64,000 nucleotides of DNA, taken from NCBI GenBank assembly GCA_965262725.1, contig OZ253555.1:1504001-1568000 (forward strand). Reading direction: 5' to 3'. The stretch comes from Dehalococcoidia bacterium (GTDB lineage Bacteria > Chloroflexota > Dehalococcoidia > UBA2979). The notes below the pieces were generated by a model. It was not told where the DNA came from. It did no database searches and was given only the letters and a program-made list of their open reading frames with translations. The position numbers and the translations under genes are program-made. Numbering within the stretch: position 1 is the stretch's first letter; every line of letters begins with the position of its first letter. Positions 17,661 to 57,120 of the stretch are shown piece after piece.

Positions 17661-18772
17661 CGGGGGGAGTTTGTCGGATGCCGCCGAGGGAGGAACGCAC
17701 ACCCAGTGTCCTAGCCGGCGCTGCATATTCGACGCTCGGTAACGACGAAGACGGAGTCGCGGTTGTTCTTGAGCAACTGGTGCAGGAGGTCGGGTAGTGC
17801 ATAGGGGACGGGCGTCGGAGGTCACCAGTTCCACGTAACGCTGCGGTCAATCGCTGAGTACGCTGGGAGCTTGCCGAGAAGTCGGGGGCGGGTCACTTGT
17901 CTAAGCTCGAATCCAGAGCGCCAGGCTAACTGGCGAGTAGGCAGGAGGTGGAAGTCCTCTATGGCAAAGAGCTAGCCACTCATGTCATTCCGCGAGCCGT
18001 GCGCGGGTCGTCGCGAGGCGGCTTGTGAAGCGTCGGCAGCGGGGTGTGCGGGCGGGGCTAATGAGCATCGAAAGGGCCATTTGGGGTGCCGAGGCTCTTG
18101 GATTGGTCGAAGGCAATACCGGCGACGGCGCTACTGGCGAGTCGTGGTCGGGCCCCACGGTGTCGAAGACCCCATGCACGCACACACGTCTATCGCCGGG
18201 ACTTGGGAGAGCTGCGCGTTGTCCCGACGAGTCGTACGCCGGGACCGCGTCGGGAAGGGACGTAAACCGTAGCCGATGATGAACGATGCGCAGCAGTCTG
18301 ATGGGGCCGTACGAGCGATGAAGGCGGCGAACAAGGGGGCGCGAGCCCCGGCGGAGTCGCTGGAGCAAAGGGCCCCAACCGAGAGGAATCCTCAAAGCAC
18401 CGGCACGGTCCGGACGCAGAGTCGGGGTGCGGTGTCACCCGGAGCGGAGAGGATACGGCAGTTCGTGGAACGGAAGCCGGGAGAGAAACTCACCGCGCTC
18501 TTGCACCACATCACGCCGGAGGCGCTGCGGGAGGCGTATCTCGCGTTGAAGCGGGATGCGGCTCCGGGCGTGGACGGGGTGAGGTGGCGAGAATACGGGG
18601 ACGGGCTGGACGAGCGATTGCTCGACCTGCATGGCCGCGTACACCGTGGAGCGTACCGGGCGAAGCCCGTCAGGCGGGTAGAGATACCCAAGCCGGACGG
18701 GGGAATACGGCCGCTCGGTATCGTCTCGCTGGAGGACAAGATCGTTCAGCGGGCGGTGGTGGACAATCTTTT

Positions 18773-20100
18773 GGGCACTTCGAAGAATGACTATATCGTC
18801 GGCATGGTGAATGATATACTGTAGCCATCAGTGTCATGGTTACGGGGGATGATATGGGCCAACTTGGGTTCTTCAATGTGGACGACCGCTACGACGCTCT
18901 CGACGCCAAGGGCGACCCACTCGCCAAGCTCGACCAAATCATCCCGTGGGAGCAGTTCAGACCTCAGTTAGAAGCCGTCTGGGCCACGCCCGAAGAAGAG
19001 CGTAAATCACCGGCCGGACGCAAGCCATGGGACGCAATCGTCATCTTCAAGGGATTGATACTCGGCGTACTCTACAACCTCTCCGATGAACAGATTGAGT
19101 ATCAGATCCGCGACCGTCTCTCCTTCTCCCGCTTCTGCGGCACAGGCATCGAAGGCCGGGTGCCCGACGCCACCACCTTCTGGCTCTACCGCGAGCAGTT
19201 GACCAGGGCGGGCGCCATCGCCGAGTTGTTCCAGGCCTTCGACCACTATCTCGCCAGCCAGGGCTACCGCGCCAGTGGCGGACAGATCGTCGACGCCTCG
19301 ATCGTCTCGGTGCCGATCCAGCGCAACAGCCGCCGGGAGAACGAGTCGCTCAAGCAGGACCTCATTCCCTCGGAGTGGGTCTTCAATCCGGCGAAGCTGG
19401 CCCAGAAAGACCTCGACGCCCGCTGGACGAAGAAGCACGGGAAGAGTCACTACGGCTACAAGAACCACATCACCATCGATCGGCGCCACAAGCTGGTGCG
19501 TTCCTACGCCGTCACCGATGCCGCGGTCCATGACAGCCAGGTGATCGACCAGCTGCTCGACTCTCCGAACACGTCACCCGATGTGTGGGCAGACCGTGCC
19601 TATCGGTCGCGGGCGATTGAGGCAATGCTCACGGAGAAAGGTCTGACGAGCCGCATCCATCGGAAGGCCGCTGCCAACCGGCCGTTGACGGCGGCTGAGG
19701 AGGCGGTCAACCGGGGATGGTCGCAAGTACGGGCCCGGGTTGAGCACATCTTCGGCTCGCAGACGAACGAGATGGGCGGCACGCACATCCGTACGATCGG
19801 CGTGCGGCGGGCAGTGACGCAGATCGGCTTCAAGAACCTGGCGTACAATATTCGCCGTCTGGCGCACCTCGAACACCGCCGTACGGCTGCCGCGGCCTAG
19901 CTTGCCGCCACCCGTCCACAGACCTCACACCAGCCTCTAGTTCGGTGCTTTGACAGTCCCGTTTAACTGTCAATTATCCCGCTTCACCTATGCTCTCGCG
20001 GACTCACCCACACCCCCTGGGGTCTCCTCAGCTACGCCCTCTGCCCCCTCGTGCCCTCACCGATACCTTCATCAACAATCGCGAGTTCTTCGAGGTGCCC
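18773..20100 (+). mobile_element. IS5-family element, apparently intact
   Basis: Inverted repeats GGGCACTTCGAAGAA / TTCTTCGAGGTGCCC; 4-bp TTTT target duplication. Confidence 0.92.
18854..19900 (+). CDS. IS5 transposase
   Basis: LSDEQIEYQIRDRLSF, IVDASIV, YGYKNH, WADRAY, RARVEHIF. Confidence 0.92.
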   Translation: MGQLGFFNVDDRYDALDAKGDPLAKLDQIIPWEQFRPQLEAVWATPEEERKSPAGRKPWDAIVIFKGLILGVLYNLSDEQIEYQIRDRLSFSRFCGTGIEGRVPDATTFWLYREQLTRAGAIAELFQAFDHYLASQGYRASGGQIVDASIVSVPIQRNSRRENESLKQDLIPSEWVFNPAKLAQKDLDARWTKKHGKSHYGYKNHITIDRRHKLVRSYAVTDAAVHDSQVIDQLLDSPNTSPDVWADRAYRSRAIEAMLTEKGLTSRIHRKAAANRPLTAAEEAVNRGWSQVRARVEHIFGSQTNEMGGTHIRTIGVRRAVTQIGFKNLAYNIRRLAHLEHRRTAAAA

Positions 20101-20129
20101 TTTTGAACCCGATTTACGAGTCGGGCTAC

Positions 20130-20991
20130 GTGCGTCCGGAAGTCGAAGGGGTGGTGACGTGATGACGTGACCGGTCCGGAGACATGCTCGTTGCTGCCAG
20201 CCGGTGAGAGTCCGGCACGGGTAACTGTCAGGAGGCCCGTTAGCAGGTCGGCGGCGTGGACGGGAAACGGTCTGCGTCGAAGCCCGACGTCAAGAGCCCT
20301 ATGAGGGGGAGCAAACGTGCGGTCCGCAGCATGACGCGAAGTCTGCCGCGCCGTGAGACTCGCCTGTCTATTGACAGGACCAAGGAGGAGCCGAGCCCGG
20401 GTGGTCAGGGCGAAGGCCATGGACGAGGTGAAGATCCTGGAATGCAGCCTCAAGAAACCTCCCGGCGTATGGGACGTGGAACGTACGGAAGGTAGCGACG
20501 GGAACCGGAGAAGCCCTCCCCGGCCCGGCACCCTGTGAGAGGGCGTCGGAGCGAGGCGTCCTATAACCGGTCAGAGCCGGGAAGTGGACAGCCAGCCGGA
20601 AGGGTGGCGGAGGGGGTCGTAGTACCGCTGGAGCCGGACGGACAACATAACCGCCGGTGATGGGAAGGACCCCTACTTTGTCCGTGCATGTTGCTGGGGG
20701 TGTGGACTGGTGAGTGCCCCTCGGGGCTAGCAACCACTTGGTAGGGTTCGAGGCTCTCCGCACATGCTGTACCGGCTGGCCAAGGCACGACCCACGTTGT
20801 GGGGAGCGCTGCATGCCATCTGGTGAAGGGCATCGGTGAGCCGGATGAGGGAGAACCTCACGTCCGGTTCGATGTGGCAGGGGCTGGAGACGGACGCTGC
20901 TATGGCCGTGGAGTTGGGCACCACCGGGAAACCGGCTTGGAACTGATGCGCCACCGCCTACGGCTCGCACCGCGCCAGCCCCTGACCCTAC
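20130..20991 (+). mobile_element. ORF-less group II intron nested in the outer RT gene
   Basis: 5' GTGCG; domain V GAGCCGGATGAGGGAGAACCTCACGTCCGGTTC (about 20839-20871); 3' CCCTAC; EBS2 pairs 6/6 and EBS1 5/6 with the flanking exon. Confidence 0.88.
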
Positions 20992-22238
20992 TACGGCTTC
21001 TCGCATGGCTTCAGGCCGGGGCGTTCGGCGCATGACGCGCTGGACGCACTGGCCTACGCGGTCGAACGGCGCAAGGTCAGCTGGATTGTCGAGGTGGACA
21101 TCCGGGAGTTCTTCGGCAGCATCGACCGGGGGCGGCTGATGTCGTTTCTGGAGATGCGCATCGGGGACCAGCGGGTGTTGCGCCTGATACGAAAGTGGCT
21201 GAGCGTCGGCGTCATGGACGCGGAGCCGGAAGTCGATTTCGTGCGGGGGATGCCGCAGGGGGCGCCGATATCGCCGCTGCTTGCGAACGTGTACCTGCAC
21301 AACGTGCTCGACGACTGGTTTGCGCGCGAGTGGCGACCGCGGGAGGTCCGGGGCGAGGCGTACATCGTGCGGTATGCCGATGACTTCGTCCTGGGGTTCC
21401 AGCACCGCAGCGATGCGGTGCGGTTCATGGAGGCACTCCGGGAGCGGTTCGCGGCCTACGGGCTGGAGCTGCACCCGGAGAAGACCCGTCTACTTGAGTT
21501 CGGCAGGTTCGCGCTGGCGAACAGGCGGAAGCGCGGGGAGGGCCGACCGGAAACGTTCGACTTTCTCGGCATGACGCACTACTGCCGGACCCGACGCGAC
21601 GGGAGATTCGGGCTGGGGCGCAAGCCCGTTGCGAAGCGGATGCGCCGGACGCTGAAGGCCATCAAGGCCGAGTTGTGGCGGCGCATGCACGACAACCCCG
21701 TGACGACGGGGCAGTGGCTGGGGCGGGTACTGCGTGGGTGGCTTGGCTACTACGCGGTGCCGACCAGCTCGCCGGCGCTCACGCGGTTTGTCCGTTTCGT
21801 GAAGCGGCTCTGGCTGCGCGTTCTCCGACGGCGGTCGCAGCGCGACCGTTTCACGTGGGAGCGCATCCTTGCCCTGTGCCAGGGACACTGGCCCCGAATC
21901 TCCATCCTTCACCCGTGGCCTGCGGAGCGATTTGCCGTCACGCACTTGAGGTAGGAGCCGGATGCCCGAGAGGGCACGTCCGGATCTGTGCGGGGGGTGC
22001 CGGGCAACCGGCATCCCTACCGCGAACCGAACGAAGCTTGACGAGGCGGGGTGCCGGGCTGCCGGAGAGTTCGACGGGTGTGTCGGCGTTCGCCGGGCGG
22101 CGCCGGGGGCGGGCCGGAGCCAAGAGTCGTCGCTCAGCGCCGCTCGGGGGCGCTGAGGGTGCGGGCGCGAGGGTGCGCGAGGCGTGCGCGGGCATGCTGG
22201 CGCGAGCTTCGGCTCCGGGTCGGCGCTGTGAGCGGGCG

Positions 22239-24792: not shown

Positions 24793-25966
24793 GTGTCCTG
24801 ATTCGTAATAGCGACAGATAACGGGTATGGTGGCACAGCGGGGTTTTGCCCCATGGGGCAGACTCTGGAGTGTCATGAGCACCCGAATCGGACGGCCGAC
24901 GGTCGCGATCGTCCTGAGCGACGAGGAGCGTGAGACGCTGGAGCGGTGGGCGCGCCGGCCGACATCGGCCCAGGCGCTGGCGCTGCGCTGTCGCATCGTC
25001 CTGGCAGCGGCCGAGGGGACATCGAATAAAGCGATCGCCGCGGCGCTCGATTGCCATCCGGTCACCGTCGGCAAGTGGCGCCGGCGCTTTGCGCAGGGGC
25101 GGCTCGATGGGCTACAGGATGAGCCGCGCCCCGGGGCGCCGCGCACGATCGCCGATGCACAGGTGGAAGCGGTGATCGTCACGACGCTGGAGGAGCAGCC
25201 TCCCAACGCGACGCACTGGTCGACCCGATCGATGGCAGCCGCGGTCGGGATGTCGCAGTCGGCGATCTTCAGGATCTGGCGCGCCTTCGGCCTGAAGCCG
25301 CACCTCGTGGAGAGCTTCAAGCTGTCGCCCGACCCGCAGTTCATCGACAAGGTGCGCGACGTGGCCGGGCTCTATCTCAACCCGCCCGACGCGGCGGTTG
25401 TGCTGTGCGTGGACGAGAAGACCCAGATCCAGGCACTCGACCGCACCGCGCCGACGGTGCCGATGATGCCCGGCGTCCCCGCCCGCCAGACGCACGACTA
25501 CATCCGTCACGGCACGACGAACCTCTACGCGGCGCTCGATGTCGCCTCGGGATGCGTGATCACGGAGATGACCCCCCGGCACCGGGCTCGGGAGTTCCAG
25601 CAGTTCCTCGCCCTCATCGACCAAAGCGTTCCCCGTGAGCTGGCGGTGCATGTCGTGCTCGACAACGTCTCCACGCACCGCACGCCCGCCATCCAGCGCT
25701 GGCTCCAGCGCCATCCCCGCTTCACCTTCCATTTCACGCCGACCTACAGCTCCTGGATGAACCTCGTGGAGCGCTGGTTTGCAGAGCTCACCAGCAAGTG
25801 GCTCCGGCGCGGCACGCACCATAGCGTCCCTGATCTGATCCGCTCAGTGGAGATGTGGGTCGCCAGCTGGAACGAGAATCCGAGGCCCTTCATCTGGCAC
25901 AAGTCCGCGGACCAGATCCTTGACAACCTCGCCGGATATCTAGAGCGCATCCCTGAATCGGGACAC
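24793..25966 (+). mobile_element. IS630-family element
   Basis: Inverted repeats GTGTCCTGATTC / GAATCGGGACAC, flanked by TA within CTAG. Confidence 0.9.
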
Positions 25967-25969
25967 TAG
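24875..25969 (+). CDS. IS630 transposase
   Basis: CVDEK, HDYIRHGT, VLDNVSTH, SSWMNLVERWF; stop codon supplied by the target site. Confidence 0.92.
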   Translation: MSTRIGRPTVAIVLSDEERETLERWARRPTSAQALALRCRIVLAAAEGTSNKAIAAALDCHPVTVGKWRRRFAQGRLDGLQDEPRPGAPRTIADAQVEAVIVTTLEEQPPNATHWSTRSMAAAVGMSQSAIFRIWRAFGLKPHLVESFKLSPDPQFIDKVRDVAGLYLNPPDAAVVLCVDEKTQIQALDRTAPTVPMMPGVPARQTHDYIRHGTTNLYAALDVASGCVITEMTPRHRAREFQQFLALIDQSVPRELAVHVVLDNVSTHRTPAIQRWLQRHPRFTFHFTPTYSSWMNLVERWFAELTSKWLRRGTHHSVPDLIRSVEMWVASWNENPRPFIWHKSADQILDNLAGYLERIPESGH

Positions 25970-51565: not shown

Positions 51566-53052
<1,487 letters not shown>

Positions 53053-53285
53053 AGGGAGTCACGCCGGAACCGAAGGGGCGCACGGTGTACGTGCCCTTAC
53101 CGGCCATCTCCTGTCGACCGGACGTCCATCCACGTGTCTCGCCCGGGTTTCCGGGCGAGGCGGGGACCACCCATTCCCGGGTGGGCGTTCGATACTCATG
53201 GGTCCCGCCCCCCTGCGCGGGGATTCTGCTCGCTATCCAGCTGTTGATGTGCGCCCGGGTAGTGGCATGCCTGCGCACGGGCAAG

Positions 53286-53362
53286 GGGCCATTAGCTCAG
53301 CTGGTTAGAGCGCAGTCCTGATAAGACTGAGGTCCCTGGTTCGAGTCCAGGATGGCCCACCA
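53286..53362 (+). tRNA. tRNA-Ile(GAT)
   Basis: Cloverleaf with CTGATAA loop and CCA end. Confidence 0.96.
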
Positions 53363-53389
53363 GCCACACCGCCTCGCGCGTGTGGAGTC

Positions 53390-53465
53390 GGGGCCGTAGC
53401 TCAGCTGGTAGAGCGCCGCCTTTGCAAGGCGGATGTCGGGGGTTCGAGTCCCCCCGGCTCCACCA
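53390..53465 (+). tRNA. tRNA-Ala(TGC)
   Basis: Cloverleaf with TTTGCAA loop and CCA end. Confidence 0.96.
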
Positions 53466-53688
53466 TCGCGAGCTACGAGGGCACTACCCACCCTTCATCG
53501 CTGAGTGCGCCGCGTCCTAGCTGGATGCGGCGGGCGTCTGGAGGCCGTCCCTCCGATCCAGCACATTCACAACCGAATACTGCGCAAAGCAGACGAACAT
53601 CGAGAAAGTTCCGGGCACGCGTCCGGGCCCGCTCGTGCCACCGGGAATCGCCCCGGGGCCGGCGGGGATCGAGGCGTGTGCGTGACGA

Positions 53689-56635
<2,947 letters not shown>

Positions 56636-56809
56636 TCGCCACGCACCGGCGCGATCCCCCCGGGGATGCGCGCCCGGACTCTCTCGGAGTTCGTCGCTCG
56701 CGCAGTATTTGTTGCTGGAGAATCCACGCGCACGGCGCCGCTTGGTGCGGTGCTACACTCACTGGCGTGGACGAGGGCCAGCCGGCCGCCGGCCGGTTGG
56801 CCAGGGCGT

Positions 56810-56884
<75 letters not shown>

Positions 56885-56892
56885 GCCTCTTC

Positions 56893-56922
56893 ACGGGGGC
56901 GGGACACAGGTCCCGCCCCCGT
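56893..56922 (+). terminator. Strong hairpin between tRNA-fMet and 5S
   Basis: CGGGGGCGGGAC-acag-GTCCCGCCCCCG; weak U tail. Confidence 0.45.
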
Positions 56923-57001
56923 TGTGCGTCTACGGGTGGCGGGGCGCACATGCGGCCCCTGGCCGCTTGCCGGTATGGCCGCCGCCGCGAGATACTGTCA
57001 G

Positions 57002-57120
57002 TCTTGGTGGTTAGAGCGCGACGGCCCCACCCGTTCCCATCCCGAACACGGAAGTGAAACGTCGTAGCGCTGACGATACTCCCCGGGCGACCGGGCGCGG
57101 AAAATAGGCCACCGCCAGGA
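57002..57120 (+). rRNA. rrf: 5S rRNA
   Basis: CACCCGTTCCCATCCCGAACACGGAAGTGAA; paired ends. Confidence 0.93.

Follow-up and report, generated by a model that had tools for sequence, protein, structure and literature searches.

Group II introns that lack an open reading frame (ORF) and twintrons, in which one intron lies within another, have been described as rare in bacteria (PMC4424553). Both serve as models for intron proliferation and for the sharing of a common splicing apparatus. Mobilization of such introns in trans by the reverse transcriptases (RTs) of their relatives has been demonstrated experimentally in Thermosynechococcus (Mohr, Ghanem and Lambowitz 2010, PMC2882425). Here, we describe an 862-nt ORF-less group II intron (the inner intron) that lies in the RT gene of a second group II intron (the outer intron, of a family that we call O) in a Dehalococcoidia bacterium. 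The analyzed stretch, referred to as the window, comprises 64,000 nt (GenBank assembly GCA_965262725.1, contig OZ253555.1, positions 1,504,001 to 1,568,000 of the forward strand) of a genome that consists of a single 3.67-Mb contig (G000:C1); coordinates are those of the window unless the contig is named. It is likely, in our view, that the window holds a recent copy of an ORF-less deletion derivative of an RT-encoding intron lineage, represented in the same genome by two families, P and Q, and that this copy was mobilized in trans and off-target into the O RT gene. Judged against published systems, such a nest appears to be a well-documented kind of event, its closest parallels being the TeI3 and TeI4 introns of Thermosynechococcus elongatus and the introns of Methanosarcina acetivorans.

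In the published account (PMC2882425), TeI4 encodes an RT, whereas TeI3 introns are ORF-less through one deletion in domain IV (D4) that left N- and C-terminal ORF remnants, as is also seen here. Copies are many in both cases: T. elongatus has a total of 28 introns, and a single element has 28 copies in our genome. Both cases involve identical inner introns in diverged outer introns, insertion into the ORFs of related RT-encoding introns, an outer ORF that was also hit by an insertion sequence (IS), and target choice that depends almost entirely on pairing between exon-binding sites (EBS) of the intron and intron-binding sites (IBS) of the exon (PMC2882425). According to the same account, however, the inner intron in T. 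elongatus lies between the first two ATGs, so that RT synthesis can start at the second ATG and does not need splicing; the ORFs of two introns there are continuous. In our genome, by contrast, the home site falls in the catalytic region of the RT, and the RT genes of all 15 relatives are occupied, with none intact. The window copy also differs in lying within an intron of a different family (39% RT identity), and what we report is known from sequence alone.

Nested group II introns of M. acetivorans were reportedly described by Dai and Zimmerly in 2003. As characterized in later accounts, ORF-less and RT-encoding introns of this organism have repeatedly homed into group II intron ORFs, with multilevel nests as a result (PMC4424553, PMC2882425), and a three-level nest (Q containing the inner intron, which contains an O-like intron) occurs in our genome. 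Homing there is described as being into related introns, whereas the window copy sits off-target in an unrelated host family, and our organism is a bacterium. Another bacterial group II twintron, in Tery_4732 of Trichodesmium erythraeum, shares with ours a genomic setting of high intron load that includes ORF-less introns needing trans-encoded maturases (PMC4649490). It interrupts a conserved host protein gene, and its sequential splicing has been shown in vivo (Pfreundt and Hess 2015, PMC4649490); our outer intron, in contrast, is intergenic, its RT is also broken by an IS, and splicing is predicted only.

If our reading is right, the genome would be a second Thermosynechococcus-type system, one that offers target rules from 14 independent sites, a replication-strand bias, and driver genes that are all occupied by their own derivative. 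The locus in the window is a dead-end off-target insertion that adds mainly to the record of cross-family nests.

Boundaries and anatomy of the inner intron

The interrupted RT gene and the two elements that split it are arranged as follows, all on the plus strand.

17917..22026, + strand: outer group II intron of the O family, 4110 nt as found and ~1.92 kb minus both insertions; starts GAGCG, ends ...CCCTACCGCGAA
18276..18773, + strand: outer RT ORF, 5′ fragment, codons 1 to ~166, ending ...VVDNLL (from the ORF list)
18774..20099, + strand: IS5-family insertion sequence, 1326 bp, with terminal inverted repeats GGCAC(T/C)TCGAAGAA; empty site known
20106..20129, + strand: outer RT ORF, middle fragment of eight codons, NPIYESGY; contains IBS2 CGAGTC (20117-20122) and IBS1 GGCTAC (20124-20129) of the inner intron
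20130..20991, + strand: inner ORF-less group II intron, 862 nt (from Rfam, consensus fold, and empty site)
20992..21954, + strand: outer RT ORF, 3′ fragment, YGFSHGFRPGRS... through the stop codon

An earlier note, made from the letters of the window alone, had proposed an 862-nt element that starts GTGCG, ends CCCTAC, contains domains V and VI, and can be removed precisely to restore the reading frame of the host RT. These proposals were borne out. An uninterrupted sister of the host intron elsewhere in the genome (L029, G000:C1:1849773-1851700) has neither IS nor intron and reads ...AATCTTTTGAACCCGATTTACGAGTCGGGCTAC|TACGGCTTCTCGCATGGC... and, through both insertion points, ...AATCTTTTGAACCCGATTTACGAGTCGGGCTAC|TACGGCTTCTCG...; because this copy spans both insertion points, the boundaries of the inner intron are exact. 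The insertion falls between codons of the O RT, and the intact sister ORF reads ...NPIYESGYYGFSHGFRPGRS..., as the note had predicted for precise removal. Genome-wide, the joined 32-mer occurs nine times, the occupied junction once, and the 16-nt 5′ target 11 times; a complete intron (20130-20991) thus lies within the outer one (17917-22026) at a site that is empty in nine sister copies. The termini, GUGCG at 20130-20134 and ...CCCUAC ending at 20991, agree with the 5′ GUGYG and 3′ AY of group II introns. Together with corrected EBS1 (below), the exact intron and IS boundaries permit this locus and the 27 further copies to be annotated correctly.

The inner intron matches the Rfam family group-II-D1D4-4 at 20198-20334 (102.8 bits; cut-off, 49), and consensus folding with its relatives gives the following domains.

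20135-20509 (intron 6-380), + strand: inner D1, from the consensus fold
20510-20608 (intron 381-479), + strand: inner D2, from the consensus fold
20609-20677 (intron 480-548), + strand: inner D3, from the consensus fold
~20678-20837, + strand: inner D4 stub, ~160 nt
20710..20730, + strand: remnant of the lost RT ORF, with the GTG start of the relatives at 20710 and a stop at 20728-20730 after six codons
20838-20870, + strand: inner D5, a 33-nt hairpin, GAGCCGGAUGAGGGAGAACCUCACGUCCGGUUC, with the AGC triad and 2-nt bulge typical of domain V
20876-20987, + strand: inner D6, ~112 nt and unusually long, its length kept in P, Q, and G003
20985, + strand: bulged A of D6, 7 nt from the 3′ end and presumed to be the branch point, from the D5-D6 consensus fold of the inner intron, P, Q, and G003

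For D1 to D3, we aligned the inner intron with six relatives: P and Q of the genome analyzed here, one intron from G003 (a congener), two copies from G008, and one from G018. RNAalifold on these seven sequences gave 157 consensus pairs, 21 of them with compensatory changes (25 of 162 in a separate run). The D5 hairpin, which two plastid D5 models also match, and a D6 with a bulged A were recovered in the fold of the inner intron with P, Q, and G003, with compensatory changes in Q. The earlier note's doubts, that the element might not fold into domains I to VI or that its splice junctions might lie elsewhere, are answered by this covarying fold and by the empty site, which fixes the ends of the insertion. 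Taken as a whole, the element folds only modestly better than shuffled sequences (z = -2.29; 1 of 20 shuffles equally good), which is weak evidence alone. The extension of D6, ~90 nt at 20888-20974, is structured and bears a hairpin capped by GAAA; P, Q, and G003 all share the extension, again with compensatory changes in Q.

D4 had been described as holding a short, decayed ORF-like stub, and the element as non-autonomous. Both descriptions fit what we found in alignments with P, Q, G003, G008, and G018: the ~160 nt of D4 hold remnants of both ends of the relatives' ORF, N- and C-terminal, and no RT ORF. Homology to roughly the first 25 ORF codons continues, out of frame, up to ~20795, and the last ORF codons are recognizable at ~20808-20826, so that both ORF ends flank a single D4 deletion, as in TeI3-type introns. 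From these alignments, the inner element appears to be a deletion derivative of an RT-encoding intron lineage, with both ORF ends kept.

The two exon-binding sites are placed as follows.

20357..20362 (intron 228-233), + strand: EBS2 GACUCG, pairing 6/6 with CGAGTC at 20117-20122
20401..20406 (intron 272), + strand: EBS1 GUGGU(C), in a 9-nt hairpin loop closed by GCCC/GGGC

GACTCG had already been proposed as EBS2, and the assignment held: beyond its 6/6 pairing at the window, GACUCG is the best 6-mer against the IBS2 region (70 of 84 pairs) in an unbiased scan of intron positions 1-560 over 14 independent sites, and it lies in a region that varies in length and sequence among relatives. EBS1 had to be moved. 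The word named for it in the earlier note, GCAGCC at 20444-20449, is present and pairs 5/6 with GGCTAC as claimed; its identity as EBS1 did not survive, as it lies in a conserved helix. GCAGCC is conserved among relatives that have different targets, lies partly inside a helix (intron 296-300/318-322) with compensatory changes, pairs at only 1 to 5 of 6 positions with the introns' own exons, and is outside the top eight words of the unbiased scan. By comparison with the relatives, EBS1 is the loop at 20401-20406. This loop is the most variable spot among them, and it pairs at 4 or 5 of 5 positions with each intron's own 5′ exon in all eight intron/site pairs, which are listed here as loop and own 5′ exon end.

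Inner intron: loop GUGGU; exon ends ACCGC or GCUAC
P: loop CAAUU; exon end GGUUG
Q: loop ACCCU; exon end CGGGU
G003: loop GGAAU; exon end CUUCC
G008 (two copies): loop GGGAU; exon ends AUCCC and GUCCU
G018: loop UCCCU; exon end CGGGA

At the window, GUGGUC forms six of six possible pairs with GGCUAC, including two G-U pairs. Across sites, EBS1 pairs positions -1 to -4 at 14 of 14 and position -5 at 10 of 14; because EBS1 contains GUGG, all 14 sites have C/U, G/A, C/U, and C/U at -1 to -4.

Copies, home site, and relatives

By blastn, the genome contains 28 copies of the inner element, 24 of them full length and 100% identical and four interrupted by other elements; the only other matches in the genome are to families P and Q. 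These copies occupy 14 distinct target sequences, all of which fit EBS2 and EBS1. P (2074 nt without the inner element) is 86% identical to it over intron positions 1-551 and 89% identical over 666-862, and Q is 79% identical. In all 12 P copies and all three full Q copies, the inner element sits at the same RT codon, and such home-site copies account for 16 of the 28, one P site having two. The home target is codon His198 of the relatives' RT (...FESIP|HDRLM), always GTTTCGAGTCGATACCGC|ACGACC; joined exons would read ...GATACCGC|ACGACC.... All 15 occurrences of the home 18-mer lead directly into the intron, and none leads into uninterrupted exon. The regular home of the inner element is the RT gene of its relatives, and all 15 sites of this kind are filled.

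Where one home site carries two copies (G000:C1:549500-551223, inside a P intron), they stand head to tail, each of 862 nt; because an occupied site keeps IBS2 and IBS1, its exon-intron junction can apparently receive a second copy. The three-level nest (L031, G000:C1:732400-737600) consists of a Q intron that holds the inner element at the home site, with an O-like intron (~84% identical to O) inside D5 of the inner element, at inner positions 722/723; the Rfam matches along it run D1D4-4, D1D4-4, D1D4-6.

The window copy is one of 12 off-target insertions and does not occupy the regular home; nested arrangements as such are not rare here. Each off-target copy has a sequence context unrelated to the others and no target duplication. 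In an alignment of the O and P RTs, the window site precedes the counterpart of the home site by ~35 codons, and among 11 copies of the O target only the one in the window is occupied. That the inner intron belongs to a different lineage from its host, as had been suggested, agrees with the assignment of the inner ribozyme to D1D4-4 and of the outer to D1D4-6, and with the 39% identity of the outer RT to the P-type RT; the host is a relative of the invader at the 15 P and Q sites and not at the window. Solved structures give group IIC RTs as the best matches for both RTs (E-values 1e-42 to 1e-58); we assign no intron-encoded protein class to either intron, because the inner ribozyme has an EBS2. 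As for gene orientation at the off-target sites, long open frames occur on both strands in this GC-rich DNA. One off-target copy (G000:C1:380701-381562) lies antisense in a paralogue of the 380-aa ORF at window 24827-25969, the C-terminal sequences of the two being nearly identical.

The earlier note had proposed a search for a full-length relative with an intact RT elsewhere in the genome. Full-length relatives are there, all interrupted; an intact one was found in the congener G003, namely, an uninvaded intron of 2073 nt with an intact 444-aa RT (TIGR04416, 396.6 bits) that includes a Pfam maturase domain. In sequencing run X7 (guessed to be DNA), two contigs lack exactly these 862 nt within a P-type RT, and others lack the P twintron entirely (2936 nt). 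Because of these contigs, the invasion appears recent and polymorphic among populations, and the former two suggest an uninvaded driver in another population.

We also fetched 80 related loci from other genomes, mostly labeled Actinomycetota, with RTs 49 to 75% identical. In two of them, both on contigs of Actinomycetota metagenome-assembled genomes (L096 and L081), the RT match extends over ~600 additional nt; within the RT ORF, L096 contains another D5/D6 (RF00029, 39.7 bits) and L081 a D1D4-2 match. By these matches, the two may be further intron-in-RT nests in other phyla.

Proposed mobilization in trans and its alternatives

The sequences themselves show the anatomy, the exact boundaries, the number of copies, the targeting rules, and the strand bias. 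We infer splicing, mobilization in trans, and the identity of the driver RT; the inner intron was probably mobilized by the RT of a relative. The source lineage would be the RT-encoding introns represented by P, Q, and the intact 2073-nt congener intron. Excised intron RNA, with RT/maturase supplied in trans by a P-type relative, would reverse-splice into DNA at sites chosen by pairing with EBS2 GACUCG and EBS1 GUGGU. The P-type RT (444 aa, from G003) has RT and maturase domains and no match to an endonuclease family; because it has no endonuclease domain, cDNA synthesis would be primed at the replication fork, with the lagging-strand template as target. Landing in the O RT would reflect the chance fit of CGAGUC-G-GGCUAC to EBS2 (6/6) and EBS1 (6/6). 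As in the TeI3 case, the genome contains related RT-encoding introns (12 P and three full Q, all interrupted by the element) and many identical copies with good EBS/IBS pairing. In favor of P as the candidate driver, in silico removal of the inner element regains a 461-codon open RT frame, spanning the home site and YADD, in 9 of 12 P copies; it does so in none of the three Q copies.

Strand polarity is consistent with such a route. Cumulative G-C is lowest at 410,247 and highest at 2,522,219, which places the predicted origin near 410 kb and the predicted terminus near 2.52 Mb. Off-target copies are on the minus strand at 294,653, 317,969, 381,562, and 3,058,071 and on the plus strand from 537,614 to 2,536,486; leading-strand polarity is found in 11 of the 12, and the 12th lies 14 kb beyond the skew maximum. 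A bias of this sort is described as expected of endonuclease-less introns that reverse-splice into the lagging-strand template and prime from nascent DNA (PMC4424553).

Several observations weigh against this reading. By tblastn, the genome contains no uninterrupted P- or Q-type RT gene. Because of this, the proposed driver could be made only from RNA from which the inner intron had already been spliced, which poses a bootstrapping problem for driver RT synthesis. Evidence of splicing was sought among 24 listed sequencing runs, of which X19 is recorded as RNA and X20 is one of three others guessed to be RNA; these were placed on a P twintron (L015:285-3420), since spliced reads from the window would be indistinguishable from those of the nine uninterrupted sisters. 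No splice joint of the inner intron was found there among the five contigs from X19 and the four from X20, none of which crosses the junction. The 100% identity of copies could partly reflect gene conversion and not recent movement. The RF00029 (D5/D6) match at 20836-20991 scores 37.5 bits, just below the cut-off of 40. The spacing between IBS2 and IBS1 in the window is 1 nt less than that of the home site, and the 3′ exon there begins with T, compared with A in 9 of the 14 sites. Finally, an unbiased scan against the last six exon bases scores GUGGUG at intron position 22 slightly above GUGGUC at 272 (73 versus 71 of 84). Position 22 is within a conserved stem, and the EBS1 call rests on covariation and loop context because G/U-rich words score high trivially.

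A bolder form of the same account, which we regard as speculative and somewhat unlikely, would make the ORF-less intron an obligate hyperparasite of its own driver lineage, held in a "splice-to-express" loop, possibly with cross-class help from the O RT. In that case, the RT genes of all 15 relatives would be saturated in their catalytic region, with no bypass start codon, and a restart of the loop would need either protein-free self-splicing or the intact O RT genes of an unrelated intron class. Should the O RT service the foreign ribozyme, this would amount to cross-class mobilization.

Servicing of the inner element by the O-family RT alone, for both splicing and mobilization across classes, seems improbable. 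O is the sole family with uninterrupted RT genes in this genome (tblastn detects seven, covering residues 1-494 at ≥99% identity, plus two diverged O-like genes), and the families are entangled both ways, the inner element being in the window O RT and an O-like intron being in D5 of an inner copy (C1:734423-736345). However, the O and P-type RTs share just 39% identity, and Rfam places the two ribozymes in different D1D4 families. The D4 region around the ORF start is the usual place where the cognate RT binds, and its retention in the inner intron points to a P-type partner. In Thermosynechococcus, moreover, relaxed RT specificity is described only among close relatives (PMC2882425).

Quite improbable is the view that the inner element is now an immobile fossil whose copies were spread or homogenized by recombination, gene conversion, or passive transport. 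Sixteen of 28 copies are at the home site within P or Q, and P is itself repeated at one conserved target, so that many may be passengers; no driver gene is intact in this genome, and gene conversion would also give 100% identity. Yet spread at the DNA level predicts neither the pairing rule nor the polarity seen among the off-target copies, which occur in 12 unrelated contexts, show no target duplication, follow the EBS2/EBS1 rules, and have the replication polarity in 11 of 12 cases. P and Q are ~20% apart yet carry identical inner copies, which implies at least two independent invasions.

That an already composite twintron of O plus inner intron was retro-transposed to the window as a unit is very improbable, although mobility of composite twintrons is considered possible in the Thermosynechococcus account (PMC2882425): the O target 16-mer is present 11 times and occupied just once, so that there is no family of composite copies, and other O copies are ≥99% identical to the window O apart from the insertions. 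An assembly artifact, with a 28-copy repeat wrongly threaded into an O copy in a genome full of near-identical repeats, is extremely unlikely, for a mis-join would not give junctions exactly at GUGCG and CUAC in a site that fits EBS2 6/6 and EBS1 6/6.

The outer intron and its IS5-family insertion

The O RT ORF of the window starts at 18276 and is interrupted twice, by the IS5-family element and, 30 nt beyond, by the 862-nt intron. That an IS5 disrupts the host RT had been noted before, and the empty-site sister and a transposase match now confirm it. The element has the attributes of an IS5 family member: a DDE transposase, encoded at 18836-19900 (NF033581, 271 bits; cut-off, 140; also Pfam DDE_Tnp_1), terminal inverted repeats, and a target duplication, CTTTTG, at 18768-18773 and 20100-20105. 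Each end may alternatively lie 1 bp further out, in which case the duplication would be 5 bp. The genome contains six copies at ≥99.8% identity. Because the IS5 also splits the RT, splicing of the inner intron cannot restore it; the host RT at the window is dead through the IS5, and the nested pair is unable to act as a self-sufficient unit. In a second O copy (G000:C1:1875590-1878403), this IS5-family element interrupts the RT ORF near residue 175/176 and is oppositely oriented; this site is only ~8 codons from the IS site of the window and adjoins the intron site of the window.

An intact sister O ORF (L029:542-2026) encodes 494 aa and matches TIGR04416 at 326 bits (cut-off, 300). The 5′ end of O was set by an alignment of 16 copies, in which flanks diverge upstream of ...ATCCA|GAGCGCC, and both ends are also defined by the O-like copy nested within an otherwise exact inner copy (C1:734423-736345). 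Its 5′ ribozyme part matches group-II-D1D4-6 at 17951-18172 (170 bits), and its D5/D6 matches RF00029 at 21953-22027 (39.9 bits; cut-off, 40). Fourteen of the 16 O-family 5′ ends in the genome are at ≥98% identity, and because of these 14 copies the family is taken to be active. Most O copies start with GAGCG, the 84% relative starts with GUGCG, and the end reads ...CCCUACCGCGAA; the ribozyme upstream of the ORF spans only ~360 nt. A literature search for group II introns that start with GAGCG, judged by title and abstract, gave nothing of evident relevance. The 75 nt directly 3′ of O (22026-22100) have 17 further copies in the genome, at 86.7 to 100% identity, without an adjoining O 3′ end, which suggests that O lies within or next to another short repeat. 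Elsewhere in the window, positions 51566-57120 hold a complete bacterial rRNA operon, in the order 16S, two tRNAs, 23S, tRNA, and 5S.

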